Below are positions 3,977-46,941 of a DNA stretch of 64,000 nt, piece by piece. Every line of letters begins with the position of its first letter. Positions within the stretch are counted from its first letter, which is position 1. This stretch comes from an uncultured Acidobacteriota bacterium (GTDB taxonomy: Bacteria; Acidobacteriota; Vicinamibacteria; Vicinamibacterales; UBA2999). The stretch is from contig CAVTGK010000040.1 in assembly GCA_963734095.1 (NCBI GenBank), positions 162,492-226,491 on the forward strand. Direction: 5' to 3'. The position numbers were made by a program, and so were the translations under genes. The notes beneath the pieces are model-generated. The model was given only the letters and a program-made list of their open reading frames with translations. It had not been told where the DNA came from and made no database searches.

Positions 3977-6906
3977 CTAGAAAATAAACCGGAAGCCGAC
4001 GCGCGCGGTAAACGGCGCCAGAATCAACGTCGGCTTCAGGTAGCTCAAACCCGTCGCGCGGCCGATCGTTTCGGACGCGTGGCTGTTGGTGATGTTGAAG
4101 AGATCCAGGTACGCACGGATGCGAGTCCGACTGTTCAGCGTGATTGTCTTCTCCGTGCGCACGTCGAATACCCAGATGTTGTCTTCTCGATTGGCGTCAG
4201 CCGGCTCGGCATAGGCGGTCTGGCGATCGCCCGTGCCGCTGGTCGCAATCAGGTCGGGGCGCGAAACGGGATTGGCGGCGGCCGTCGTCGAAATGACCAC
4301 CGTGCGGGCAAAGTTGACACCCGACTGATGGCGCAGGACAGGAGAGAGCCGGATTCCCCACGGGGCCTCGTAGCTGCCTATTGCCTTGAGCCCCCACGTC
4401 GAGCGGTCCTGCACGCCAGGCATGTTCGGGTTGTTTGGGAACAGATCGTTCGGGAAGTTGGTGAGCATCGTGTAGCCGCCACCAACTTGCGCCGACCACT
4501 TGTTGGCGAAGCGCTTCGTGGTCGAGACCTCGATGGTCTTGTAGCGGCCATACCGCGGCACGTTCATGACAACCTGGTCGGCCGGGAAGAGGGTGTTGGC
4601 ATTTGCCGCCGGCAAACCCAACATCCTGATGATTTTATCGTCGGCGGTCCCAGCCCTGCCGTCGACACCAATATCGGTGAAGTCGAACGGCACCGTGAAC
4701 ACTTCCGGCCCGCGACCTGGCTGAAAGGTGTCGATCAGGTCGTCTTCGGTCTTGTAGACGAACCCGGCTCTCGCGCCCATAGAGTCATTCAGCTGGCGCT
4801 CGAACCAGACCGCTGCTTCGTGCGAGTACGGCGCCTTGATGTTCGGATCGACACGGATCGCGCCTTCGAGCGCGGCCGTGACAAACGTGGTCTCTTCGCC
4901 TGGCTGCCAGCGCTTGTCGCCCGCGATGCACCCGGCGCACGCTAGTTGGTCATTCCAGTTCCACGTGGAGGACTTACTGGCGATATTCGCGTTGCCGCTG
5001 GCTGGCACGCTGACGCCCGGGTTGTGCCAGTAGAGGCCGTAGTTGGCCTTCACGACCGTCCTCCCGTCGCCGCTCAGATCGTAGATGAAACCCACGCGCG
5101 GCGCGACCTGGTTCCACGTGAAGAGGTCCGTCTGCGGGAAGGTCTTGGCGTCCACCGATGCGCGGCCAACGGTCGCGCCGAGCTGCTGCTGCTCCGGCAA
5201 CCAGCCCTTGTAGTAGTCATAGCGGACGCCGCCATTGATCGTGACACGCCCGACCTGCCACGTGTCGTTGATGAAGAAGCCGATCTGATCGAGCGCCGCG
5301 CGGGACGTGAGGGCGCCGTTGTCGTTGTCCTTCAGGCTGCCGACGCTCGTTGCCGTGGGCAGACCGAAGATCACCTGCGTCGAGTTGCCGTTGTTGTAGA
5401 CCTGTTCGATATTGCTTGTGCCGCCGCGGCGCGAGAGGAAGCCTTCCCACGACTGCTCCTTCAGCAGCTCGCCGCCCATCTTGAACGTGTGGCTGCCCTT
5501 GGCGGTATCGAGAAAGTAGGTCGCGGCGCCCGTCCACTGCTTGCGGTCGCGATCGAGCTGCTGGCGCCTGATGCGCACCTTCAGAGATCAGCTGGCCCGT
5601 GTCGTGCCAGAAGAAGTTGTCAGGGCTGTTGGTGATGAGCGGGAAGTAGTACCCGAAGTCACCGTAGCGTGCTTCGAGATAAAGCTTGTCGGTGAGCGTC
5701 CCGTTCCATTCGGCCTTGTAGACCCAGCTGCCCGAGTCCTGCGCGAACGTCTGCTCGGGAGACAGGTAGCTGTAGGTCGCGAACGGCAGCCGATTCGGCT
5801 GTTCCTTCTGACCCCACTGGTAGTAGCCGATGATCTTGTGGTTCTGGTTCAGCTGATAGGTCCCCTTCACGACCGGGTTCCACAGCTTGGTGTCGAACGT
5901 CTTATCGAATTGGAAGTTCGGCTGCGCGACTGCATTGAATTGCTGCCGGAAAGTGCCGAAGTACCAGAGCTTGTCCCGCTTGATCGGTCCGCCGGCGTTG
6001 ATGTCGTGGTCGTAATAGCGCTCGATCTCGTTGCTGTGCGCCCGGATGGCATTGCTGCCATTGGTGCCGTTGAAGGCGGTCGGCGACGTGTAGTCGCTCG
6101 GGCAAGTTCGAGCCCTGCAGGGAGCTGTTGTACCAGTCGAGATGGTACTCGCCGAAGAACTGATTGGCGCCCGAGCGCGCGATGAACTGCGACTGCACGC
6201 CGGGGTTCGGCATCTCGGCCGACTGGCCCGATGTGCCGATAAACGCCTCCTCGAGCGACGCGTAATCGAAATAGAAACCGGCACCGCCTGTGCCTTCTGT
6301 CGTGTTGATACCTTCGATGAGCACACGTACCTGGCCGTTGAAGCCATAGGCGGTATAGCCGCTTTGCGTGCCGGCTCGGTTGCCGCCCACATCGACGCGA
6401 GCCATTGCCACCGATGGCGTGATCGCCAACAGGGCCCACATGTCGCGAGCGTTGGGAATCGACTGCAGTTGTTCGAGCTTGAAGTTCTGCTGAATACGAG
6501 TCGCGGACGTGTCGATGACGGGGGATTCACCCGTGACCGTGACCGTCTCTTGAAGTGTGGCGAGCACGAGCTCGATGTTGATGGTGGCCGTGAAGCCGAG
6601 TGTTATCAGAATGCCTTCCCGCTTCACACCGCTGAACCCGGCCAAGTCGTACGTCACGGTATAGGTGCCGGGCGGCACTGCCGGGAATCGATAGTTGCCG
6701 GTCTCGGAGCTGACCGTCGTCTGCGCTCCGAGCATCGACGGGCTGGTCGCAGTCACGGTCACGCCAGGGAGCACCGCGCCCTGCGCATCGGTGACGCGAC
6801 CTTGAATCGTGCCGGTGCTACTGGCACCACCGCCCTGCGCATAGGCAGGCGCGGCGACCGCGAGAGTCAGCGCGGCGATCAGCAATCCGCCAAGACAACG
6901 CTTCAT
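3977..6906 (-). pseudogene. TonB-dependent receptor with N-terminal CarboxypepD_reg domain, copy 1; two frame disruptions (about 6100 and about 5580)
   Basis: Three ORF pieces join colinearly into one receptor: 5902..6906 (signal peptide, GTIQGRVTDAQGAVLPGVTVTA), 5217..6530 and 3977..5578 (ends ..ARVGFRFIF*). The span is 2930 nt, not a multiple of 3. Confidence 0.85.
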
Positions 6907-7127
6907 TCGTCATCCTCCATGTCCTGTGGGGACGACCCGGGGGGGCCTTGTCCCAGACATACCGCCTCGTGCAACACAAACGAACGAGCCCGTTCGCGGA
7001 GTGAAACGAACGTCGAACGGACCAAGCGACGACGACTAACGCAGAGCGGGGACCGATGGCAGTCAGTCATACCGCCAGCAACGGTCACAGCCCAGTTCCG
7101 AGGGTGAAATTACCTGGATCGCGGCTG

Positions 7128-7157
7128 AATCTACAGGAAAGAGGGACGGGGACGCAA
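7128..7157 (-). promoter_or_regulatory. Putative sigma70-type promoter TTGCGT-N18-TAGATT for receptor copy 1
   Basis: Hexamers and spacing are conserved at the equivalent position upstream of copy 2 (10581-10610). It lies about 215 nt upstream of the start codon. Confidence 0.4.
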
Positions 7158-7284
7158 CAACGAAACAAGCCCGCATTCTGAACGGTTATTCAAGGGCGCC
7201 TGGCTCGCGTCGTTCAATCGTGGATCCCCCGGCAGAATGGGCACGTCGAATTGCGAAAGCGACCAGCCGTGTGCAATTGAAGGC

Positions 7285-7322
7285 AAAAAAAGGCGGGACG
7301 CGCAGGCGCAGCGCGTTCCGCC
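7285..7322 (-). terminator. Rho-independent terminator of TonB-dependent receptor copy 2
   Basis: The minus strand reads ggcggaacgcgctgcgcctgcgcgtcccgccttttttt. Paralogous to 3903-3940. Confidence 0.75.
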
Positions 7323-7356
7323 AACTGACTCCCCCACAGGAGCCAACTCGTCGTTA

Positions 7357-7436
7357 GGGCGGGTGAGTCCGGTAAGGCGAGTGGGGGCTGGTTACTTCAC
7401 CACCCGCCCAACCCGACCGACCAGCCCGACCCGACC
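7357..7436. repeat. Word hairpin (GGGCGGGTG / GGTCGGGT family)
   Basis: gggcgggtgag...ttcaccacccgcccaacccgaccgaccagcccgacccgacc. Word family shared with 27614-27776. Confidence 0.6.
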
Positions 7437-7445
7437 GTGTAGGCG

Positions 7446-10351
7446 CTACCAGAGGAACCGGAACCCGAGCCTGGTGGTGAACGGTGCCAGGATGTTCGCG
7501 GGCCGCAGGAACGTCGTCCCGTCGTGTCGCGTGATCGTCTCCGACGCGTGACTGTTGGTGATGTTGAAGAAGTCGATGAACCCGCGAATCGCGCATGCGG
7601 CTCGTCAAGTTCAGCGTCTTCTCAGCGCGAACGTCGAAGACCCAGATGTTGTCCTCCGGCGGGCGCTGGCGCCTCGGCGTAGTACGTCGTTGCTGGAAGC
7701 GTCAGAGCCAAATGGCGTCGGCCGCGTTGCCCGGCACCGCTGATCTGACGCGCGAACTGGACGCCCGATTGATGACGCAGGAACGGGCGATAATCTAATG
7801 CCCCACGGGCCATGTCGTAGGTGCCGGTTGCCTTGAAGCCCCAACCGGTCGCGGTCATAGACGCCGGCCTGATTCGGGTTCTGCGGGTATCCTTCTGGGG
7901 GAAGTGCGTGGTCCACGTATAACCGAAGCCGATCTGACCGGACCAGCGGTTCCCGTAGCGCTTGGTCACCGACGCCTCGACGGTCTTGAAGCGTCCGTAC
8001 GCGTCATCCGGAGGTTCATCACGACCGAGTTGGTGGCGGGAACGAGTGCCGGCCTGCGCGATGTTGGGCATGCCGAGCAACGTCACCGTGCTGGTCGTCG
8101 CCCGTGCCTGTACGATGCCATCGGCACCGACATCGGTGAAGGGGAACGGCACGGAGTACGCGCTCAGCGGGCGACCGGGCTGATACGTGACACGGTGCGA
8201 CGAGAGCAGGTCGTCTTCGGTCTTGTAGATGAAGCCCAGTTCGCACCCGATCGGTGCCGCAATCTGGCGCTCGAGGAACAGACTCGACCTCGTGCGAGTA
8301 ACGGCTGCGTTGATATTGGGATCGAGGCTGACAGCGACCCCTCAAGACGAGGCGACGTCGGCGTGCGCGCCTTCCTCACCAGGTTGCCACTGCCTGTCGC
8401 CGTTGGCGTCGTTCCAGGAGTAGGTACCGCCTTGCCGTGCGTGTTCGAATTGGCGTAGGCTGGAGACGGCGACGCCAGGGTTGTGCCAGAAGAAGCCGTA
8501 GTTCGCCTTTGATCACGGTCTTGCCATCGCCGGTGAGATCGTAGACGACACCGAGGCGCGGGGCGAAGACGTTCCACGTGAAGAAGCTTTGTCTCAGCGA
8601 AAGTATCCGCGGGCACGAGACACCGGCCCGACCGTAGCCGCCGAGCTGTTCCTGCTCTGGCAGCCAGCCGTGGTAGCGATCGTAGCGAACGCCGCCGCTC
8701 ATGCGTGAACCGACCGACAGCCCACGTGTCGTTGACGAACAAGTCCATCGTGGTTGAGCGCTGCGCGTGAGGTCAGATTGCCCTCGTCGTTGTCTTTCAT
8801 GCCGCCCACGTTGCTTCGCTGTCGGGAGACCAAACACCACCGTGCTTGGCGAAGCCGTTCGCGTATTGGTGCTCGATGTTGCCGCCGAAGCGCTGCGTGA
8901 GAAGCCTTCCCACGACTGCTCACGTGAGCATTTCGCCCCGAACTTGAGCGTGTGGCTCCCCTTCGTCGGTGTCGAGGAACATCGTGGCGGCGCTGGTCAA
9001 CTGCTTGCGGTCGCGGTCGAGTTGCCATCGGCTGCTGCGCCCCGGTGAGGATCTGTAGGTCCGGTATCGCGCAGAACCAATACTGCGTGTCGGTATTGCG
9101 ATCAGCGGGAAGTAGTAGCCAAAATCGCCGTAGCGCGCCTCGAGATAGAGCTTGTCGCTGAGCGTGCCGTTCCACTCGGCCTTGTACACCCAACTACTCG
9201 ACTTCTGAGCGAGAGTCGGCCCAGCGTCAGGTAGCTGTACGTGGCAAAGGGCAGCCGGTTGGGTTGCTCCTTCGTGCCCCCATTGGTAGTAACCAATGAT
9301 CTTGTGGTTCTGGTTCAACTGGTAAGTGCCCTTGACGACGGGATTCCAGAGCTTGGTGTCGAACGTCTGTTCGAAATCGAACTGCGGCTGCGCCACGGCA
9401 TTGAACTGCGTGCCGGATAGGTTCCGAACCACCACAGCTTGTCGGCCTTGATCGGACCACCGGCGTTGATCGCCGTGTCGTAGTAGCGATCGATCTCATT
9501 GCTGGCCCTTACGGTATGCGCCCGTCGTTGATGCACATCGTCGCGGAATGTTCGAAGCCTGCAGGGCGTTGTTGTACCAGTCAAGGTAGTACTCGCCGTT
9601 GAACTGATTACCGCCTGACTTGGTGATGAACTGGCTCTGCACACCAGGATTCGGCATCTCGGCCGACTGGCCGAGCGTGCCGAGAAACACTTCTTCGACC
9701 GAGGAGTAGTCGAAATAGAAGCCGGCGGCGCCGGTGCCTTCAGTCGTGTTGATGCCTTCGATGAGCACACGCACCTGGCCGGTAAAGCCATACGCCGTGT
9801 AGGGGGTCTGCGTCCCAGCGCGGTTGCCGCCGACATCGATACGCCTCATCGCCACGCCGGGGGACACCGCGAGGAGCGACCACATGTCGCGGCCGTTCGG
9901 GATCGACTGCAGCTGGTCGAGCTTGAAGTTTGCTGAACGACGCGGTCGCCGATGTGTCGATGACTGGCGATTCGCCGGTCACCGTGACGGTTTCCTGCAA
10001 CGTCGCGAGCGCGAGCTCGACGTTGATGTTCGCGGTGAAGCCGAGAGAAATGATGATGCCCTCACGCCTCACCGCGTTGAATCCGGTCAGCTCATACGTG
10101 AGCGTGTAGGTGCCGGGAGGGACTGCCGGGAACCGGTAGTTTCCGGTCTCGGAAGTGACCGTGGTCTGCGCGCCGAGCATCGCCGGACTCGTCGCGGTGA
10201 TGGTCACGCCGGGCAGCACCGCGCCCTGCGCATCGATGACCCGACCCTGAATCGTGCCGGTGCTGCTGGCACCACCGCCCTGCGCGTACGCAGGCGCGGC
10301 TATCGCGAGACTGAGCACGGCGATCAGCAAACTGCCTAAGCAACGCTTCAT
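7446..10351 (-). pseudogene. TonB-dependent receptor, copy 2 (tandem paralog); at least 8 frame disruptions
   Basis: N-terminus (9740..10351) is about 85% identical to copy 1. The remaining homology is scattered over ORFs 9496..9885, 9315..9836, 8920..9435, 9102..9296, 8699..9193, 8376..8840, 8164..8748 and 7622..8152. The C-terminal ..RLGFRFLW* stop is at 7446. Confidence 0.85.
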
Positions 10352-10580
10352 GCCTCAACCTCCATGTCCTGTGGGGACGACCCGGGGGGTCCAATCCCAG
10401 AACAACCGCCACATGCAACACAAAACGAGAGTCGTTCGGAGCAGCAGGCAAAGCGACATGCGCCGAACGGGAGCGCCGCCGACGACGAAGAACGCACGAG
10501 CGGGGACGACGACAGTCAGTCATACCGTCGGCAACGGTCACAACCCACTTCCGAGGGTGAACTTGCCTGAATCGGTGGCG

Positions 10581-10610
10581 AATCTACAGGAAACAGGGAC
10601 GGAGACGCAA
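10581..10610 (-). promoter_or_regulatory. Putative promoter TTGCGT-N18-TAGATT for receptor copy 2
   Basis: Same hexamers and spacing as 7128-7157. Confidence 0.4.
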
Positions 10611-10699
10611 CAACGGAACGGGACGTAATTTAACCGAACGTTCAAACTGGCGAAAAGGTCGGGAACGGCCACGGCCGAGGGTTTTACGGCCCACGGTCC

Positions 10700-10806
10700 T
10701 CGGCCGGTGGCCGGCGGCCGGGTAGTTTCCAGTTGCCAGTTACCAGTTCAAAGGGACTGGCCAACTGACAACTGACCGGAGGCCGGAGCCCTGCTGCCGG
10801 CCACCG
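10700..10806. repeat. Word hairpin (CCAGTT / AACTGG words, outer GGCCGG stem) downstream of eamA
   Basis: cggccggtggccggcggccgggtagtttccagttgccagttaccagttc-aaaggg-actggccaactgacaactgaccgg...gccggccaccg. Confidence 0.8.
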
Positions 10807-10820
10807 ACTCGTCCCTGTGT

Positions 10821-11726
10821 TCACACCGCGGGGTTCAGTCTCGTCACCGCGATTCCGCTCAGGATCAGCGCCGCGCCGAGGAGCTGTTGGCCGGTAATCC
10901 GCTCGCCAAGCCAGACGGCCGCCACGACCATGGCAACGATGGGTGTGAGATTGCTGTAGACCGCAGTCCGCGCGCTGCCGATCTCCTGTACCGCGGTGTA
11001 CCAAATCATGTACGCGAGAGCGAGCGCCAGCAGCGAGGACGCCGCCATCAACAGCCAACTCAGTGCTGAGATACGAGCCCAGTCGGTGGTGATGAGCGAA
11101 GGGAACGCCCCGATGCCGTAGAGGACGGCGCCGATCATCATCGCCCAACCCGTGACGACGAGCGGCGAGTGTCGCTTGAGCATCGGCTGTGCAGCCACCG
11201 AGTAGAGCGACCAGCACAGCATTCCGCAGAACACCAGAAGATCACCCACAAAGGTTGCGGCCGACAGCTCCGCCCGGTGACCGACGAGCGCGTAGATTCC
11301 AGCGAGTGACAACGCAGCGCCGCCCCACCGGGCCGCCGTGAGACGTTCATGCCCGGCAACGGACGACATGATCGCCACCGCCACTGGCGTGCATCCGAAC
11401 ATCAGTGCACTGTTCGCGACGCTCGTTCGCGCGAGGCCAGCGAGGAAAAACAATTGATAGAGAACCGTGCCGACGAGCGCGAGCATGACCAGAGTTGCCC
11501 ACTCGCGACGAGTCAGGCGCGGTTGGGGAGGTCGTTCGCCGGCGGCGGACTGGCGCTGGTGTCGTAGCATCGCGACCAGAAACACCGCGCCTGCCAGCAC
11601 GAGCCGCATGGCGTTGAACGAGACCTCGGGGAAGTCCCGAAGCGCGTATTTGATGGCGGAGAAGTTGGCGCCCCAGATGCCGACCATCAGGAGCAGCAGG
11701 AGGTCGAGACGGGAAAAGCGGCCCAT
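10821..11726 (-). CDS. EamA/DMT-family transporter
   Basis: 301 aa with 10 predicted TM segments. The N-terminus ..LLLMVGIWGANFSAIKYAL.. is typical of the EamA family. Confidence 0.8.
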   Translation of the reverse strand: MGRFSRLDLLLLLMVGIWGANFSAIKYALRDFPEVSFNAMRLVLAGAVFLVAMLRHQRQSAAGERPPQPRLTRREWATLVMLALVGTVLYQLFFLAGLARTSVANSALMFGCTPVAVAIMSSVAGHERLTAARWGGAALSLAGIYALVGHRAELSAATFVGDLLVFCGMLCWSLYSVAAQPMLKRHSPLVVTGWAMMIGAVLYGIGAFPSLITTDWARISALSWLLMAASSLLALALAYMIWYTAVQEIGSARTAVYSNLTPIVAMVVAAVWLGERITGQQLLGAALILSGIAVTRLNPAV

Positions 11727-11781
11727 CGCGTGGGTCGAGATGGTCTGATGGCGCGGGTCTGGCTCGGTAGGTTTGATAACA

Positions 11782-11871
11782 GTGACCAGTTCGACCGCAA
11801 CCTCGACTCTTTGAACTGGTCACTGGCAACTGGAAACTAGCCGGCCGCTGGCTACCGGCCACTGGCCACCG
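11782..11871. repeat. Word hairpin (CCAGTT family) upstream of eamA
   Basis: gtgaccagttc-N20-gaactggtcac, then actggcaactggaaactagccggccgc... Positions 11813-11848 are the reverse complement of 10714-10749 with 2 mismatches in 36. Confidence 0.8.
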
Positions 11872-11878
11872 GCGTGAG

Positions 11879-12223
11879 CTAGCCGCCGAAGGGCTTGATG
11901 AAGAAGAGAATCAGCGTCACGAGCAGCACATAGATGACGAGGGATTCGATCAGCACCAGACCCAGAATCAGAACGCCGCGGATGTCGCCGACTGCCCCGG
12001 GATTGCGCGCAATCGCCTCGGCGGCCGAGCCGATGGCGCGGCCCTGCCCGATGGCTCCGCCGGCCGCGGCGATGGCCAGGGCGAACCCAGCGGTGATGAT
12101 TGACCACTGTACCAGACCGCTGTTCGCGGCATCAGCGGCCGCCTCCTGGGCAAACACGGGCGAGGCCACGCCCAGGACCAGGAACGCCAACATCACAGAC
12201 AGCAGGGAGCGTCGAGTGCTCAC
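11879..12223 (-). CDS. atpE: F-type ATP synthase subunit c with signal-peptide-like N-terminal extension
   Basis: Hairpin of two TM helices with loop ARNPGA and carboxylate helix ILGLVLIESLVIY. N-terminus is MSTRRSLLSVMLAFLVLGVASPVFAQE. Confidence 0.85.
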   Translation of the reverse strand: MSTRRSLLSVMLAFLVLGVASPVFAQEAAADAANSGLVQWSIITAGFALAIAAAGGAIGQGRAIGSAAEAIARNPGAVGDIRGVLILGLVLIESLVIYVLLVTLILFFIKPFGG

Positions 12224-12249
12224 AAAACCTCCTCAGGCGTAATGACTGA

Positions 12250-12648
12250 CTACTTCGGATTGGATCTGACAGCCTCCACGGCGGCGGCCACCCAGAGGGC
12301 CGACACTCCTACAACGATCCCCACCGGGTCGAGTTGCAAGCGGAGCATCATACCGTAGGCTGTCAGGGCCAATATAGCATGTCTTGTGAAAAACTTCACT
12401 AGCGCAAGGCGACGCGAATTCCGCCCGATTTCTCCACTTTTGGCCGCCGCAACCGCCTGCTCCACCACCCCCCGCAGCGCCCACAGCGCCAGCGCCGCCA
12501 GCACCCCGCCCCCGGCCACCCCAAGAGCAAAACGCGGGCGCGCCGGGCGCGCGGCATACGCCACGATCGCCAGGACCGCGACCACCACGGCAAGCGTACG
12601 AACAAACCGTCCGACGACATCAGATCCCGACATCTTCAAAGGAGACAA
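12250..12648 (-). CDS. ATP synthase protein I-like small membrane protein
   Basis: 132 aa with 4 hydrophobic segments. Sits between atpZ and atpE, where AtpI normally lies. Family assignment rests on position and topology only. Confidence 0.5.
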   Translation of the reverse strand: MSPLKMSGSDVVGRFVRTLAVVVAVLAIVAYAARPARPRFALGVAGGGVLAALALWALRGVVEQAVAAAKSGEIGRNSRRLALVKFFTRHAILALTAYGMMLRLQLDPVGIVVGVSALWVAAAVEAVRSNPK

Positions 12649-12666
12649 GCTGAACCGGCGCCGCGA

Positions 12667-12900
12667 TTACGACTTCGGCGTGCGGGAAGAGCCAGCGATC
12701 TGCATCACCCGGTAGACATTGAGGATTCCGGCCGCCAGGCCGACGAAGAAGCCGAGGAACGACAGCCACGGCGTCGATCCCAGCCAATTGTCCAGTAGGT
12801 AGCCGCCGCCGAAACCGATGACCAGCGCGAAGACGAACGACAACCCCAGCGTGCTGAGTTGTCCGATGAGCCGAATATTTTCGCCGGAGATCGGCGCCAC
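12667..12900 (-). CDS. AtpZ/AtpR-type putative F0F1-ATPase accessory protein
   Basis: 77 aa. ..LGLSFVFALVIGFGGGYLLDNWLGSTPW.. matches the ATPase_gene1 pattern. Confidence 0.7.
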   Translation of the reverse strand: MAPISGENIRLIGQLSTLGLSFVFALVIGFGGGYLLDNWLGSTPWLSFLGFFVGLAAGILNVYRVMQIAGSSRTPKS

Positions 12901-14850: not shown

Positions 14851-14852
14851 GC

Positions 14853-14970
14853 GGAGTTACAAGTTACAAGTTCACAAGTTACAAACCGCTGGGCCGATCC
14901 ACTCGCGCTCCAGGAGCAGCTCTGACCGAAAACTTGGCAACTCAACTTTGAACTTGTAACTTGTAACTTC
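14853..14970. repeat. Word hairpin H1 (GTTACAA words)
   Basis: ggagttacaagttacaagttcacaagttacaaacc-loop-aacttggcaactcaactttgaacttgtaacttgtaacttc. Ends 4 nt before the next start codon. Confidence 0.85.
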
Positions 14971-14974
14971 ACGA

Positions 14975-15808
14975 ATGTTCGTCTTCCCCCTTCTCCTCTA
15001 CGTCCTCTCCCTGGTCGCGTACGCGATTCACTTTGCGCGCCGCACGCCATCTGCTGGACGTGCCGCAACGGCGTTGCTGGTAGCGGGCGCCTTGGCGCAC
15101 ACGTTCGCCATCGGCATGCAGACGATGGAGGCCGGGCATGTGCCGTTTGCAGGGACGACGCAGGCGATTTCGACGTTTGTGTGGCTGCTCGCACTCGCGT
15201 ATCTGTACATCGAGGTGACGACCGACGAGCGTGGCCTGGGCGTCTTCATTCTCACCATCATTGTCGCGCTTCAGATTCTTCCCGCCGTTCGGGGAGCCCA
15301 AGTCGAGCCGCAATCTCCAGTGCTGGCCCACCCCCTGTTTTGGACCCACGTTGCAGCACTACTGGGCGCCTATGCGAGTTTCGGGCTGGCAGCCGTGATT
15401 GGTATCACCTACCTGCTGCAGTTCAAGGAAATAAAGGCCAAGCACCTGGTGTTCTTCTTTGAGCGGCTACCCTCGCTGCAAGCGCTCGACGTCATGAACT
15501 CGCGAACAGTCTTCATCGGCTGGCTGCTGCTGACGCTCGGCCTCGGTGCGGGTGCGCTGTGGGTTGCCGAAGCGGTGGCGTTGGCGCCGGCCGATCCGCG
15601 CGTGCAGGCAATGTCCCTTCGCGATCCCAAGATCTCGGTCGCGCTCATGACATGGGCGGTCTACACGTTTCAGCTCGTTGCTCGCCGGGTGATCGGCTGG
15701 CGCGGTCGGCCGGCGGCGTATCTCGCGGCGGCAGGGTTCGCGATCGTCCTGCTCAACTTCGTGCTGGTCAGTTACTTCCTGACCGAAAGCCACAATTTCG
15801 GGGCCTGA
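14975..15808 (+). CDS. HemX-like / CcsA-family cytochrome c assembly membrane protein
   Basis: 277 aa polytopic membrane protein immediately upstream of hemA, as in hemAXCDBL-type clusters. No clear WWD heme-handling motif is seen. Confidence 0.65.
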   Translation: MFVFPLLLYVLSLVAYAIHFARRTPSAGRAATALLVAGALAHTFAIGMQTMEAGHVPFAGTTQAISTFVWLLALAYLYIEVTTDERGLGVFILTIIVALQILPAVRGAQVEPQSPVLAHPLFWTHVAALLGAYASFGLAAVIGITYLLQFKEIKAKHLVFFFERLPSLQALDVMNSRTVFIGWLLLTLGLGAGALWVAEAVALAPADPRVQAMSLRDPKISVALMTWAVYTFQLVARRVIGWRGRPAAYLAAAGFAIVLLNFVLVSYFLTESHNFGA

Positions 15809-15809
15809 G

Positions 15810-17096
15810 GTGCATCTCCTTCTGGTCGGTGCCAGTCATCGCACGGCATCGGTTGACTTGCGCGAGCGGCTCGATTTCAGCAGCCGCGGTCTCGAAGACG
15901 CGGTACGCGCCGTCATCGGCCGGCAATCCGCCGCGGAAGCCGTGGTCGTTTCGACTTGCAATCGGGCCGAGCTCTACGTCGCGTGCCACGATCCAAAGTC
16001 GACCATCATCGACCTGCAAACGTTCTTTTCCGAGTTCCACCGCATACCGCTCGAGCAGATTCGGCCGCACCTGTATGCACTGCAGGATCACGATGCGGTG
16101 CGTCACCTGTTCCGCGTCGCCTCTGGTCTCGACTCGCTGGTCGTCGGCGAGCCTCAAATCCTGGGGCAAGTGAAGGACGCGTTTGCGACCGCCTCGCAGG
16201 TTCACAGTGCCGGGCCGCTTCTCAACCGACTGTTCCACTGGTCGTTCGGCGTCGGCAAGCGGGTCCGCTCGGAAACCGGGCTGGCCGAGGGCGCCGTCTC
16301 GGTGAGCTTCGCGGCAGTCAACCTGGCGCGAAAAATCTTCGGGAGTCTGGCGGGCCGCAAGGTGCTCGTGATTGGCGCCGGCGAGATGGGCCGGCTGACC
16401 GCGGTGCATCTCAAAGCGCAAGGCGTCGAATCGGTCACGATCACCAGCCGAACGCTCGCGCACGCGCAAGATCTCGCGGATGACATCGGGGCCGCAGTCA
16501 CGCCGTGGGATACGCTGCAGCCGTCGCTTCTCGACTCGGACATCGTCATCACGGTGACGGGCTCGCCGATACCGATTCTGTCGAAGTCGCAGGTCAAGGA
16601 AGCGATGCCGGCCAGCCGCTCGCGTCCGCTGTTTCTGATCGACATCGCCGTCCCTCGGGACGTCGACCCGCGCGCAGGCGAACTCGAGCAGGTGTTCCTC
16701 TATAACATCGACGACCTCCAGTCCATCGTCCGCGAGAACCTGGAGCGGCGCGGCGTTGAAGTCGGTCGCGCGGATCAAATCATCGACGAAGAGGTGCTCA
16801 AGTTCACGAACTGGCAACGATCACGCGATGCCGTACCGACGATCGTGGCGCTGCGTCAGCACTTCGAGGGGATTCGCAAGGCCGAACTGGAGCGGCTCGA
16901 GCCAAAGCTTGCGGCGTTGCCGCCGGAGGCGCGCGCGCGCGTCGACGAGATCACACGGTTGATGGTCGAGAAGCTCCTGCTCCAGCCGACCGAGCAGCTG
17001 AAGAACGCGGGTGATGCGCATCTCGTGTCACAGTATGCGGCGGCGCTCAGCCGACTGTTTGGGCTCGAGGACAAATCAGAGGACCGGTCGGAGTGA
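15810..17096 (+). CDS. hemA: Glutamyl-tRNA reductase
   Basis: 428 aa with GTG start. ..STCNRAELY..GEPQILGQVK..VIGAGEMG.. Confidence 0.9.
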   Translation: MHLLLVGASHRTASVDLRERLDFSSRGLEDAVRAVIGRQSAAEAVVVSTCNRAELYVACHDPKSTIIDLQTFFSEFHRIPLEQIRPHLYALQDHDAVRHLFRVASGLDSLVVGEPQILGQVKDAFATASQVHSAGPLLNRLFHWSFGVGKRVRSETGLAEGAVSVSFAAVNLARKIFGSLAGRKVLVIGAGEMGRLTAVHLKAQGVESVTITSRTLAHAQDLADDIGAAVTPWDTLQPSLLDSDIVITVTGSPIPILSKSQVKEAMPASRSRPLFLIDIAVPRDVDPRAGELEQVFLYNIDDLQSIVRENLERRGVEVGRADQIIDEEVLKFTNWQRSRDAVPTIVALRQHFEGIRKAELERLEPKLAALPPEARARVDEITRLMVEKLLLQPTEQLKNAGDAHLVSQYAAALSRLFGLEDKSEDRSE

Positions 17097-17102
17097 CGGG
17101 AC

Positions 17103-17170
17103 AGTTACAAGTTACAAGTTCAAAGTTGAGTTTGGGAGTTTGTAACTTGGAACTTGTAACTTGTAACTTC
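17103..17170. repeat. Word hairpin H2 (GTTACAA words), inverted copy of H1
   Basis: Positions 17103-17132 are the perfect reverse complement of 14939-14968 (30 nt). Ends 5 nt before the hemC ATG. Confidence 0.85.
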
Positions 17171-17175
17171 CGCCA

Positions 17176-22129: not shown

Positions 22130-22132
22130 CTA

Positions 22133-22298
22133 GGGTTCTTGAAGGAGGTTCTTGACGAAGGTTCTTCACGCAGGTTCGACGGAGGTTCTTCACCGGGGTT
22201 CTGCGAAGGTTCGTGACGGGGTTCTCGCGAGAACCTTCGTCAAGAACCATTGTGGAACCGTCGTGAAGAACCTCCGTCGAGAACCGTCGTTAAGAACC
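22133..22298. repeat. 166-bp palindrome built of 11-14-nt GGTTCTTSA words between convergent genes
   Basis: 8 left units containing GGTTCT/GGTTCG and 6 right units containing AGAACC/GGAACC. Symmetry centre is ctcgcgag at about 22228. Confidence 0.85.
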
Positions 22299-22305
22299 AA
22301 AACAC

Positions 22306-27589: not shown

Positions 27590-27613
27590 GGACAGAAGCC
27601 AATGGTACTACGG

Positions 27614-27776
27614 GGTCTGGTGAGGCGGGTGGGTCGGGTCAGGTCGGGTCTGGAGGACCCGGTGAGGCTGGTCGCATCATGAAAAGGAAAGGCCGGAGGA
27701 TTCCTCCGGCCTTCAGACCGGCGAGCCTACCAGCCTGCCCACCAGCCTTACCCGCCCTACCAGACTTACTCGCCCG
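27614..27776. repeat. Compound word hairpin (GGTCGGGT / GGTGAGGC words) enclosing a perfect terminator hairpin
   Basis: Left arm ggtctggtgaggcgggtgggtcgggtcaggtcgggtctgg.. Right arm ..cctaccagcctgcccaccagccttacccgccctaccagac. Confidence 0.7.
27681..27711 (-). terminator. Rho-independent terminator (GGCCGGAGGA/TCCTCCGGCC followed by TTTCCTTTTC on the minus strand)
   Basis: Read directly. Lies downstream of the NHL-like gene. Confidence 0.7.
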
Positions 27777-31288: not shown

Positions 31289-31295
31289 CGGTGAT

Positions 31296-31388
31296 CAGGG
31301 CACAGGGCGCAGTGGCATAGGGCGGAGGGCGCGACAGGATTGAGGCCCAATCCCTCCTATGCCCTGCGCCCTGTGTCCTACGCCTGTC
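31296..31388. repeat. Word hairpin (GGGCRCA words) between pyrE and truA
   Basis: cagggcacagggcgcagtggcatagggcggagggcgcgac-aggattgaggcccaatccctcc-tatgccctgcgccctgtgtcctacgcctgtc. Confidence 0.85.
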
Positions 31389-33811: not shown

Positions 33812-33946
33812 ATCGCAGGGCACAGGGCAGGGGTACGGGCACAGGGCACAGGGAATAGGGCGTAGGGCATAGGGCGGGCTAGGGACAGGGACTGAGGGCC
33901 CTAATCCCTCCCCTATGCCCTGTGCCCTGCGCCCTCTGCCCTGTAC
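33801..33946. repeat. Word hairpin (GGGCRCA words), asymmetric (about 90-nt left arm, about 40-nt right arm)
   Basis: Shares the loop core tgagggccctaatccctcccctatgccctg with 31296-31388. Confidence 0.85.
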
Positions 33947-33961
33947 AGCTAAACTCCCCCC

Positions 33962-42759: not shown

Positions 42760-42852
42760 GGACGGACCTCGTGGCAGGTCGTCATGGTCCCCTCTTCGCG
42801 AACTCGCAGGTTCGCAGTTAAAGAGCTGTCTCAGTATAGCGCAGGACTGACG

Positions 42853-42936
42853 AAGGTGCCTACGGTGCCTCGGTGCCTGGGGTGCCTAAGGTGCTGGTGC
42901 AAGAAGTGCGTTCGGTGCCTAAGGTGTATGAAGTGC
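42853..42936. repeat. GGTGCCT word array: left arm of a split hairpin
   Basis: aaggtgcctacggtgcctcggtgcctggggtgcctaaggtgctggtgcaagaagtgcgttcggtgcctaaggtgtatgaagtgc. About 70% reverse-complementary to 44375-44467. Confidence 0.8.
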
Positions 42937-43330
42937 AAACAAAACCCTGAGCCGGCTTGGGCGCTTCAGTTTTAACGAACGTCGCACCACCTGGACAGGC
43001 GCGATCCGAGCATGCCCACGGCCAGATAGCCAACGGTGGGCCATTTCCGCGAGGAATCCGAACGTTGAGGCCGATTCGATTCCTGCGTGGCTGACCATTC
43101 GACCAAAAGAGCCGGTCGCGCGACCGACTGGATCCAAAACCATCGTTACTGGACGTACTCAGTAATCGAATCGGTGACCTGACGCGAAAACGTCGCCGGC
43201 ACGGTCGAGAGCTGCTCGATACGCCGCTGATCGCCGGCAAACGTTTGCGCCGAGGCGTCTGTTTTCCCTCTTCGTGATGGCCGCGACGCGAGGAAGTACA
43301 CGCCCGGGAATATCGGCGTAGAATTGCGCC

Positions 43331-44251
43331 ATGCACGGGGGCCCGGCAGGCATCCACTCTCGGGTAACGAGGCGGCTCGCTGTGCGGATTCTGCTGACCG
43401 TGCTGATTGTAAGCGGAACAGCCCATCCTCGACCCGTCTGGCCCTTCGCATGGGCGGCGCAGGATCGTGCGGATGCTACCAACGGTGTCGTCGAGGTTGA
43501 GGGCGGTCGCATCTACTACGAGGTGACTGGGCAAGGACCAGCGCTGGTTCTCATCCACGACGGCATCCTCCACCGCGAAACGTGGGATGAGCAGTTCGCC
43601 GAATTCGGCCGTTCGTTCCGGACCGTCCGCTGGGATCGTCGCGGCTACGGAAAGTCGCCCGCTCCTCAGGCGCCGTTCTCACATATCGATGACCTGCTCC
43701 TGGTCATGAAAGCGCTGAAGATCGAGCGCGCCGCTCTGATCGGCTGCTCGGCTGGAGGCATGCTGGCGCTACATTTCGCGCTCGATCATCCCGCGATGGT
43801 GAGCGCGTTGGTGCTCGTCGGCCCGATTGTCAGTGGCCTGCCATTCTCCGATCACTTCGTGACTCGTGGCGGGCGGAAGATTCCTCCCCCCGGCAGTCCT
43901 GCCGAAGATAGGATCGATTACTGGACGTCGAAGGATCCCTGGATTACCGCTCCGACCAGCGATGGCGCGAAGCGTAAGATGCGCTCACTCATGGAGGCGA
44001 ATCCGGCGAACGGCGCGGGCGGGCAACACGCACGCTGGTCCGAGCCAGTCCTGGGCCGGTTATCGCAGATCAAGGTTCCGACCCTCTTGATCGCCGGCGA
44101 GTCGGACATTCCCGACGTGCATAGCAGTATGGGTGCGATTCAGGCTGGCGTCCCGGCCGTCACGCGCGTCGTGTTGGCGCATGCGGGCCATTTGCCGCAT
44201 CTTGAAGTGCCACAAGCCTTCAACGCAGAAGTGTTGAAGTTCCTTCGGTAA
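43331..44251 (+). CDS. Alpha/beta-fold hydrolase
   Basis: 306 aa. ..LVLIHDG..LIGCSAGGMLAL..LLIAGESD..AHAGHLPHLE.. Confidence 0.8.
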   Translation: MHGGPAGIHSRVTRRLAVRILLTVLIVSGTAHPRPVWPFAWAAQDRADATNGVVEVEGGRIYYEVTGQGPALVLIHDGILHRETWDEQFAEFGRSFRTVRWDRRGYGKSPAPQAPFSHIDDLLLVMKALKIERAALIGCSAGGMLALHFALDHPAMVSALVLVGPIVSGLPFSDHFVTRGGRKIPPPGSPAEDRIDYWTSKDPWITAPTSDGAKRKMRSLMEANPANGAGGQHARWSEPVLGRLSQIKVPTLLIAGESDIPDVHSSMGAIQAGVPAVTRVVLAHAGHLPHLEVPQAFNAEVLKFLR

Positions 44252-44374
44252 GGTTCGACGATGGCGGCAGCCTACAAGGACTGATTCGTCGGTAGATTGC
44301 ATTCACCAACGCGGGCGTGTCGGCGCAAAGTTAGGGTCATCAAACTTTTCGAAAGATTTGCGCGCGTTTCGGAG

Positions 44375-44467
44375 GCACTGTTACACGCACTTAGGCACTT
44401 CTGGCACCTTTCGCACTTTAGGCACCAGCACGCCAGGCACCTTCGGCACCCAGGCACGCCAGGCACT
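44375..44467. repeat. AGGCACC word array: right arm of the split hairpin
   Basis: gcactgttacacgcacttaggcacttctggcacctttcgcactttaggcaccagcacgccaggcaccttcggcacccaggcacgccaggcac. Confidence 0.8.
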
Positions 44468-44478
44468 CTTACCCCTTT

Positions 44479-46239: not shown

Positions 46240-46249
46240 TCTTGGATTC

Positions 46250-46376
46250 TAGTTCGGAGTTCGGAGTACGGGAGTTCGGCGTTGGTTCGACGTTCGGAGT
46301 TCGGAGTTCGGGTTCGGGGTACGGGGTTCTGAGTTCTGTTCTGAGTTCTGTTGCTGAGTGCGGAGTTCTTGGCGCG
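46250..46376. repeat. GTTCGGA / GTTCTGA word array: left arm around the four-helix-bundle gene
   Basis: gttcggagttcggagtacgggagttcggcgttggttcgacgttcggagttcggagttcgggttcggggtacggggttctgagttctgttctgagttctgttgctgagtgcggagttc. Confidence 0.8.
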
Positions 46377-46396
46377 GGAGTTGCCTTCATGTCCGC

Positions 46397-46765
46397 ATGC
46401 CCTGGCGACAATTCACGGAAATCGAGGCTTGGAAGCTCTGTATGAGATTGAGCCAGGAATTCGAGGCAATTCTTGACAGGCCGCCGGCCTCCCAAGATCG
46501 CAAGTTCTGCGAGGAGGCTCGTGATGCCGCCCTCTCGTCGCCGCGAAACATCGCTGAGGGCTTTGGCCGGTTCGGCAATCGAGAGTTCGCCAACTTCGTC
46601 AGCATCGCCCGAGCGAGCCTGATGGAGACACAGACGAATCTGCTCTTCGCGCGCGATGCCAGATTCCTATCAGCGCCGGAATTCAAAAGCCTGTGGGACC
46701 TTTCGGAGGAAGCTCTCTCAACAACCACCGGATTGCTCAAACATCTTCGCAGACGTCGGCCCTGA
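46397..46765 (+). CDS. Four-helix-bundle protein (23S rRNA intervening-sequence protein family)
   Basis: MPWRQFTEIEAWKLCMRL..RNIAEGFGRF..REFANFVSIARASLMETQT.L..A is the characteristic pattern of this family. The start at 46397 was chosen inside ORF 46358..46765. Confidence 0.8.
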   Translation: MPWRQFTEIEAWKLCMRLSQEFEAILDRPPASQDRKFCEEARDAALSSPRNIAEGFGRFGNREFANFVSIARASLMETQTNLLFARDARFLSAPEFKSLWDLSEEALSTTTGLLKHLRRRRP

Positions 46766-46782
46766 CGACGGAATAGGCGGCC

Positions 46783-46941
46783 AGAACTCAGCACGCCGCA
46801 GGCCGTATGCCGCAGGCCGAACGCCGCACGCGGCACGCCGAACGCCGAACGCCGAACAGAACTCAGAACCTCCGAACTCGGAACAAGAGCTCAGAACTCT
46901 GAACACTGCACCAACTCCGAACCCCGCACCCCGAACTCCGC
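46783..46941. repeat. TCAGAAC / TCCGAAC / GCCGAAC word array: right arm around the four-helix-bundle gene
   Basis: cagaactcagcacgccgcaggccg...gccgaacgccgaacgccgaacagaactcagaacctccgaactcggaac...ccgaaccccgcaccccgaactccgcag. Reverse-complement words of 46250-46376. Confidence 0.8.

Follow-up and report, generated by a model that had tools for sequence, protein, structure and literature searches.

The inverted repeat around eamA in an uncultured Acidobacteriota bacterium joins two intergenic word hairpins, one an inverted copy of the other

Introduction

In a 64,000-nucleotide stretch from an uncultured bacterium of the Vicinamibacterales (Acidobacteriota; assembly GCA_963734095.1, contig CAVTGK010000040.1, positions 162,492 to 226,491 of the forward strand; hereafter the window), the transporter gene eamA lies between the arms of a near-perfect inverted repeat. 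Each arm belongs to a hairpin in an intergenic spacer, S1 behind eamA and S2 behind atpE, and both hairpins are built of tandem words of seven nucleotides (nt). We compared these spacers, and those of a second hairpin pair (S6 and S7), with the loci of relatives (numbered with the prefix L), which were retrieved through their EamA homologues; in all, the analysis covered about 0.5 Mb of related sequence. The comparison reveals that S2 arose by inverted copying of a hairpin of the S1 type and replaced an older hairpin in its spacer.

The closest described systems are the REP, BIME and REPIN sequences of Proteobacteria (PMC3116915, PMC3337134, PMC3733652), which, like the elements described here, are extragenic hairpins behind gene ends, also inside operons. 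A REP is an imperfect palindrome of 20–40 nt with GTAG or CGTC at its 5' end, and two inverted REPs make up a REPIN (PMC3733652). A genome carries tens to hundreds of them, near-identical and dispersed, and they flank the gene of a cognate RAYT (a Y1/HUH transposase). The likeness extends to the occurrence of families per genome, to copies in both orientations and to the length of the REPIN hairpin, about 100 nt. Unlike REPs, however, the arms of our elements are tandem 7-nt arrays without self-complementarity, and only the whole element is palindromic. There is no conserved GTAG or CGTC head; the junction reads GTAG in S1, CTAG in S2, ATAG in the S6 of L002 and TTAG in L004. Each locus tends to have its own word, the copies seen are few and local, and resident hairpins are overwritten. 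No RAYT or other transposase family and no recombinase was found among the 58 open reading frames (ORFs) of the window scanned with Pfam, a search limited to the window.

Template-switch mutations (PMC8794818, PMC5453318) resemble the events seen here in another respect: a resident tract gives way to the reverse complement of sequence from nearby, which for S2 is that of S1 and for S7 that of S6. A further likeness is that one such event can bring about multi-base compensatory changes and perfect Watson-Crick stems. Unlike these events, which involve a few to tens of bases within one hairpin, the copies described here are whole hairpins of 80–150 nt in spacers 1–2.5 kb apart, in one case in direct orientation, and the copy distances of 1.06 kb (S1/S2) and 2.2 kb (S6/S7) lie beyond the published template-switch range. 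Quasipalindrome correction in bacteria is a related process.

Period-7 repeats are known as well. The cyanobacterial STRR are intergenic heptamer repeats, and TAACTGA is an intergenic direct repeat that abounds in Beggiatoaceae, Cyanobacteria and Bacteroidetes, where it typically stands 5' of start codons. The latter were described in PMC4679880. Like both, our elements are period-7 tandem arrays confined to intergenic DNA, and one arm in L002 contains TAACTGATAACTGA. Unlike both, in which one genome-wide heptamer forms direct repeats, mostly just before starts, they use locus-specific words that are paired with their complements and stand behind stop codons.

ERIC/IRU, YPAL, RPE and MITEs are imperfect palindromes of about 100–170 nt in transcribed intergenic regions, with presence or absence at orthologous sites among strains. 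Our elements share the imperfect intergenic palindrome and its presence or absence between strains. ERIC-type elements and MITEs, however, have a genome-wide consensus and no heptamer period, and their insertion adds sequence, often at TA, whereas here another hairpin was replaced. A test of the loci for a MITE or cassette found no presence/absence of eamA, which is present in every covering locus, and no target-site duplication. Like intrinsic terminators, the elements are stable GC-rich stem-loops a few nt past a stop codon (5 nt for S2 and 15 nt for S1); unlike them, they have stems of 30–50 bp instead of 5–15 bp, lack a U-tract and in some cases stand within an apparent operon (hemA|hemC). 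Thus, every family compared fails at least one defining feature, and in the literature we found no description of word or heptamer hairpins in Vicinamibacterales or Acidobacteriota.

Results

The inverted repeat joins two complete hairpins

The features at the centre of the analysis are the following.

10821–11726, minus strand: eamA, an EamA/DMT-family transporter of 301 amino acids (Pfam EamA, E 7.7e-48)
11879–12223, minus strand: atpE, the ATP synthase c subunit (Pfam ATP-synt_C, E 1e-13), the gene with S2 behind its 3' end
10702–10806, minus strand: S1, a complete word hairpin of about 105 nt, first base 15 nt past the eamA stop
10702–10753: well-preserved arm of S1, reading on the plus strand three GGCCGGN units, then TAGTTTC, CAGTTGC, CAGTTAC, CAGTTCA and AAG
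10754–10806: degenerate partner arm of S1
11780–11873, minus strand: S2, a reverse-complement copy of S1, first base 5 nt past the atpE stop
11780–11792, 11793–11812 and 11809–11860: short partner (13 nt), loop (20 nt) and long arm of S2, followed by more GGCCA-type heptamers to 11873
11727–11775, minus strand: remnant 3' arm of an older atpE-terminal hairpin, with ACC/GCC-rich words complementary to GGTCTGGT / GGTAGGG

The repeat was first noticed in a sequence-only reading, made from the letters of the window without database searches, which reported positions 10714–10749 and 11813–11848 as reverse complements with 2 mismatches in 36. Pattern search, with the pattern matched on the minus strand, and shuffles bear out both the coordinates and the count. 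Alignment confirms the repeat and extends it to 52 nt at 92% complementarity (arms 10702–10753 and 11809–11860, with 1055 nt between them), which ranks it third among the longest inverted repeats of the window. The 36-nt pattern had no match in 100 dinucleotide-preserving shuffles, and CCAGTTNCCAGTT, allowing at most 1 mismatch, occurs five times, always within the two arms, where 0.12 occurrences would be expected. We rejected chance or low-complexity convergence, as the match takes in bases at the junction and beside the loop that are not repetitive, and it turned up in no shuffle. The repeat is also unlikely to be an assembly artefact, since L032, a metagenome-assembled genome (MAG), contains both the upstream arm and the downstream element, the JGI contig L051 has the upstream arm, and the JGI contig L004 has the downstream element.

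Other parts of the sequence-only reading stand as well. Pfam confirms the identities of eamA and atpE, and both elements consist of the period-7 words GGCCGGN and CCAGTTN, in line with the word family to which the arms had been assigned. The arms pair with each other better than with their neighbours, as had been claimed: cross pairing reaches 34/36, the left arm pairs with its own local partner at about 25/36, and the right arm has a perfect local stem of 13 bp (11780–11792 / 11813–11825) past which pairing is weak. Each arm, built of CCAGTTN words beside GGCCGGN words, is half of its own hairpin. Because both have local partners, the repeat consists of two hairpins and not of one split hairpin. 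The family element is accordingly a hairpin of 80–150 nt with arms of 7-nt words, directly behind a stop codon, that of eamA for S1 and that of atpE for S2.

Folded as RNA, S1 has an energy of -76.4 kcal/mol (z = -5.6) and S2 one of -45.6 kcal/mol (z = -3.1). Between the window and L032, genomes 1.4% apart, the 13-bp stem of S2 differs by a compensatory T>G / A>C pair. A scan for terminator and promoter consensus found no site at S1 or S2, and the tails after their stems, which read UUAUCAAACC and GAGGACCGUG, contain no U-tract. Rfam yielded nothing credible for the whole window at gathering score or for 10300–12300 at E ≤ 1; the best match, Ms_IGR-5, scored 20.8 bits against a gathering score of 45.

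S2 is an inverted copy that replaced an older hairpin

Eleven loci of relatives extend as far as atpE, and every one of them has eamA as the next gene downstream; eamA is therefore ancestral at this position. The loci named for this adjacency are L001–L004, L032, L033, L035–L037, L040, L043 and L052, and the adjacency persists down to 48% EamA identity (L037, L040 and L043). Thus eamA is the ancestral neighbour of atpE and never moved. This contradicts the claim of the sequence-only reading that eamA interrupts an atp operon context, and its suggestion that the arms would be fused into one hairpin where eamA is missing found no case, since no relative without eamA was found. A search of metagenomes with EamA brought up only short contigs, none above 70% identity and none of use for the spacers.

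The hairpins evolve fast and differ from genome to genome. Among the relatives' loci compared, the CCAGTT element occupies the atpE|eamA spacer only in the window, in L032 (MAG MFD00962.bin.1.9, 98.6% nt identity) and in L051 (a JGI contig with EamA at 98%). Ten other loci, L001–L004, L033 (97–98% nt identity), L034 and L052–L055, have eamA in place and a different hairpin of GGTCTGGT / GGTAGGG words in the atpE|eamA spacer, and so do not have the bracket. L032 and L004 have S1, L002 keeps only what is left of one arm, and L033, L001 and L051 lack S1. Of the two hairpins, L051 has only S2 and L004 only S1, so the bracket does not form a unit. Relatives that keep eamA at this position without the repeat are what the sequence-only reading had itself named as a refutation, and the repeat is therefore a property of the two spacers and not of the gene that they enclose. 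A BLAST comparison of the window with L033 shows homology breaking exactly at 11778–11877, 10626–10796 and 17070–17175, all of them hairpin spacers.

The alignments reveal where S2 came from. In the window, S2 aligns locally with the reverse complement of S1 at a score of 84 and with S1 in direct orientation at 25; over the window and L032 together, the scores are 84–91 against 17–33, and the fuller copy in L051 gives 111.5 against 68. Taken over the copies as a whole, the reverse-complement scores range over 84–111 and the direct ones over 25–79. Against the long-loop S1 of L004, the alignment of S2 continues through the loop into the second arm, and the outer GGCCA / CTGGCTACCGG heptamers of S2 match that S1 as well. 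S2 is thus recent and was copied, inverted, from an entire hairpin of the S1 type, which each lineage has since trimmed in its own way. The event dates to the ancestor shared by the window, L032 and L051 and replaced the 5' arm and the loop of an unrelated, older word hairpin, which other relatives still keep. The remnant of this hairpin at 11727–11775 still aligns with the spacers of L033, L004 and L002; L032 and L051 no longer have it. Because S1 was copied in inverted orientation, the good arms of S1 and S2 are complementary across eamA, and the bracket is a by-product.

S6 and S7 are a second inverted pair

The sequence-only reading had also noted the same architecture at 14853–17170, where we find arms at 14930–14968 and 17103–17141 (39 nt, 90% complementary). 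They belong to two further hairpins.

14851–14974, plus strand: S6, an older word hairpin in the VWA|ccsA spacer and donor of S7, with AGTTACA / TGTAACT words and a GTTCAAAG / CTTTGAAC core
17097–17175, plus strand: S7, a reverse-complement copy of S6 without its 45-nt loop, in the hemA|hemC spacer

S7 and the reverse complement of S6, 2.2 kb away, share two blocks of about 30 nt that are identical save for single-base gaps, and the central 45 nt are missing. S6 is found in the window, L032, L033 and L001, and an S7 of this type in the window and L032 only; L033 and L002 have at hemA|hemC a word hairpin of 171–207 nt with GGTGCC / GCACCT words instead, which S7 replaced. S2 and S7 each displaced about 55–200 nt of older hairpin, with no visible direct repeats at their flanks and no target-site duplication. 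Among the 253 pairs that can be formed from the 23 word elements of the window, the best two are S1/S2 and S6/S7, both neighbouring and both inverted.

The members of the CCAGTT family share the GTTCAAAG / CTTTGAAC core beside the loop and occupy different adjacent spacers in different genomes. In L002 the orthologous S6 has CCAGTT words (TAGTTTCCAGTTGTCAGTTACCAGTTCAAAG, 30/31 identical to the S1 arm of the window) and a further copy stands at a third site; in L035 (EamA at 64%) a member lies in the atpE|atpI spacer. The copies amount to two with CCAGTT and two with the AACTTGT variant in the 64 kb of the window, within 6.5 kb of each other, and to three sites in 20.9 kb of L002, with none in other loci. 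All members seen lie within about 25 kb, and the remaining 47 kb of the window and the unrelated loci yielded none. As a side observation, the arm with TAACTGATAACTGA belongs to the S6 of L002 (locus 6805–6893, in window orientation), and its TAACTGA is possibly a coincidence of word drift.

Word hairpins fill the window, with a third probable replacement

Tandem Repeats Finder detects 17 period-7 and 8 period-8 arrays in the window. In most of the tandem and convergent spacers the sequence folds into a long hairpin with a word of its own (CCAGTT, AACTTGT, GCCCTGY, CAATCACC, GGTGCC, GGTTCCA, GGTTCTTCACG and others), and three of the five divergent spacers have none. We compared a second region, window 22–44 kb, with L056, L057 and L058, which brought up a further pair.

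31289–31386: hairpin in the truA|PRT spacer
33812–33961: hairpin in the OEP|GT2 spacer

The truA|PRT spacer has a GCCCTG hairpin in the window and L056 and a CAATCACC / GGGTGATTG hairpin in L057 and L058. In the window, the loop of the GCCCTG hairpin (GCGACAGGRACTGAGGGCCCYAATCCCTCC) has a match, in direct orientation, in the OEP|GT2 hairpin at a distance of 2.5 kb. The hairpin at truA|PRT was probably copied from there, which would make it a third replacement by a neighbour. Neighbour-copy replacement has thus been recurrent in the lineage of the window.

Between strains, the two arms of a hairpin gain or lose words in parallel (NHL|hupE and S6). A test for selection at the RNA level found no bias between sense and antisense folding energies in 12 hairpins and few G-U pairs. 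The parallel change of words, the compensatory pair in S2 and the lack of strand bias point to a symmetry that is kept at the DNA level.

Discussion

Function and mechanism

On balance, and with some reserve, we favour a joint reading in which S1 and S2 are two members of one intergenic palindrome family, S2 having been copied inverted from S1, with a REP-like role at 3' ends and template switching as the means of copying. Their position makes it likely that the elements are REP-like 3'-end hairpins that form transcript ends and/or protect transcripts from 3' exonucleases. For this role the structure appears to matter and the sequence not, because an unrelated hairpin can replace the resident one.

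Copying likely occurs by replication-linked template switching between neighbouring hairpins. Replication would stall or break at a hairpin, and the nascent strand would switch template at heptamer microhomology to a hairpin 1–2 kb off, a distance of about one Okazaki fragment. The old and new S2 have such microhomology in common (GGCCGGT / GGCCGGTAG). The neighbouring hairpin would then be copied before the strand switches back, by template switching or break repair, and a switch onto the lagging-strand template behind the fork would give an inverted copy. Templating from arm to arm, together with slippage, would make the arms Watson-Crick perfect and let words be gained or lost in both arms together. 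Hairpins and multi-base compensatory changes are documented products of template switching (PMC8794818).

Several points weigh against this reading. The published template-switch events span tens of bases, not 1–2 kb (PMC8794818). The truA|PRT copy is direct, so that a single cross-fork geometry cannot cover all cases. Two genomes whose genes are only about 80% identical share a 31-nt arm at 30/31 identity in non-orthologous spacers, and the further copy in L002, near-identical, lies 13.6 kb from its S6. The loop of S2 in L051 resembles S6/S7 more than S1, and the donor history is therefore mosaic. The putative role as terminator or stabiliser is read from position, no U-tract follows the stems, and some of the hairpins stand inside apparent operons such as hemA|hemC. 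Finally, the comparison covers about 0.5 Mb of related sequence.

Alternative explanations

Tentatively, the elements could be previously undescribed intergenic palindromes of a clade of Vicinamibacterales that renew themselves from arm to arm, are copied between neighbouring spacers in either orientation, overwrite the hairpin already there and in some cases bracket inserted genes, namely the abhydrolase segment at 42848–44471 and the 23S_rRNA_IVP gene at 46358–46765. They would then be a case of replication-linked hairpin conversion or a new class of non-autonomous element with a protein partner.

Rather unlikely, yet the main and a serious rival to template switching, is a non-autonomous mobile palindrome of the REPIN, ERIC or MITE kind, which would be moved by a transposase acting in trans and would prefer existing hairpins and short hops, S2 and S7 being insertions. 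It stays a serious rival because the truA|PRT copy is direct and an arm is conserved across distant genomes. Both that arm, kept at non-orthologous sites at about 80% genome identity, and the near-identical copies 13.6 kb apart in L002 agree with a recognised 'master sequence' of the kind known from mobilised repeats. The copies also span the whole element, loop and both arms, and word arrays in the window bracket inserted-looking segments (the abhydrolase segment, absent from L057 and L058, and the 23S_rRNA_IVP gene). Against it, the arms are not themselves palindromic REP units, the GTAG, CTAG, ATAG and TTAG of the copies do not make a conserved GTAG/CGTC head, and no target-site duplication is visible where resident sequence was replaced and not added to. 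The confinement of the family to about 25 kb argues in the same direction, as do the absence of a transposase from the window and a scan of viral contigs with the arm, which gave 0 matches.

A role at the RNA level is improbable. Here, a stem of about 52 bp would form around eamA in an atpE-eamA co-transcript and, like rRNA-processing stems, offer an RNase III site by which the eamA mRNA is excised or silenced. Folding of the eamA transcript (1191 nt), a check that the sequence-only reading had proposed, does pair both arms around the whole ORF in the minimum-free-energy and the centroid structure, and cross pairing beats local pairing. However, the local hairpins would form first during transcription, the reading presupposes read-through past S2, and no genome but the window and L032 has the bracket, with S2 alone in L051, S1 alone in L004 and neither in the other relatives. 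With the bracket limited to two genomes, the pairing of the arms around eamA is arguably incidental.

It is highly improbable that the repeat forms an invertible segment that flips eamA in the manner of a phase-variation switch. Inverted repeats of 52 bp at a distance of 1.06 kb could support RecA-mediated inversion, but no relative shows the segment in the other orientation, not even L032 with both arms, no recombinase is found in the window, and a flip would part the whole gene from its upstream region and not switch a promoter.

Hardly credible at all is the reading implied at first, in which eamA is a cassette that was inserted into the atpE terminator hairpin or the atp operon and split the hairpin into two arms: the arm-gene-arm layout and the true split word hairpins with a gene in the 'loop' elsewhere in the window may suggest it, but the ancestral atpE-eamA adjacency (down to 48% identity) already refutes it, relatives carry eamA with a different and complete hairpin upstream, and each arm has its own local partner.

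An analogy to integron attC sites is also out. Such sites carry GTTRRRY / RYYYAAC boxes, which the arm ends do not resemble, and the genes flanked here are housekeeping genes in conserved synteny.

Implications

The comparison removes a false lead, in that eamA is no mobile cassette and the atp context is undisturbed. It catches whole 3'-end hairpins as they were replaced by copies of neighbours at 1–2.5 kb, within about 2% divergence, which provides direct evidence on how long perfect stem-loops originate and are kept up without stepwise compensatory mutation, and it stretches template-switch ideas from tens of bases to kilobase distances. Hairpin spacers are the main homology breakpoints between near-identical Acidobacteriota MAGs. 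Because cross-complementary copies yield inverted repeats at the kilobase scale, they can mislead annotation, assembly and searches for mobile elements. The turnover of hairpins is a variation on known kinds of process, and it merits genome-wide study.

Neighbouring genes and further observations

The whole window has 62–66% G+C, and the names of the homologues of its EamA and TolC place it in the Vicinamibacterales. Around eamA and atpE lie the following genes.

12250–12648, minus strand: atpI
12667–12900, minus strand: atpZ-like gene
beyond eamA, minus strand: CarboxypepD_reg / OMP beta-barrel receptor gene, broken by frameshifts

The atp cluster of the window (11879–12900) is thus atpZ-atpI-atpE, with a gap of only 26 nt between atpI and atpE, and has no atpB. 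In the distant relative L040 (8611–9426), an ATP-synt_A gene (Pfam E 2.7e-52) stands in the position between atpI and atpE, so that atpB was lost or moved in the clade of the window.

On the other side of eamA (window 3977–10351), two CarboxypepD_reg / OMP_b-brl_4 receptor genes are broken across several reading frames. L001 has many split genes, and the alignment of L032 across the receptor stretch contains 184 gap openings; the split receptor genes could stem either from indel errors in long reads or from real decay. Upstream of the receptor gene, a leader at 10352–10620 that contains the block GTCCCTGTTTCCTGTAGATTCGCCACCGATTCAGGCAAGTTCACCC is conserved as far as L002, a relative at about 80% identity. 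It has no Rfam match and may be a promoter or an element of the 5' untranslated region.

Two segments place genes between inverted word arrays. At 46248–46940, a gene for a 23S_rRNA_IVP / four-helix-bundle protein of 135 amino acids (46358–46765, plus strand, Pfam E 1.3e-19) lies between AGTTCGG / GTTCTGA arrays at 46248–46370 and CCGAACT / CAGAACT arrays at 46780–46940. These arrays have no local partners, which makes this a genuine gene within a split word hairpin. The segment at 42848–44471 is 1.6 kb long and holds an alpha/beta-hydrolase gene (43331–44251, plus strand) between inverted GGTGCCT / AGGCACC arrays of 71 nt that are 73% complementary. The window and L056 have it, but in L057 and L058 the pyrR|phosphodiesterase spacer lacks it, and the closest homologues of the hydrolase (72–78% identity) lie in unrelated contexts. 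The segment seems to be an inserted arm-gene-arm unit.

In the uppS|NHL spacer (27590–27765), GGTCTGGT / GGGTCGGGT word arms surround an inner GC stem-loop (GGCCGGAGG...CCTCCGGCC). The stem-loop is conserved in L056, L057 and L058 and the word arms differ; words seem to accrete around a core terminator. A giant hairpin at 22130–22305 (-99 kcal/mol), with GGTTCTTCACG-type units and periods of 13 and 24 nt, lies between the convergent hemL and a gene of 291 amino acids without a Pfam family; L058 has an unrelated spacer of 92 nt in its place.

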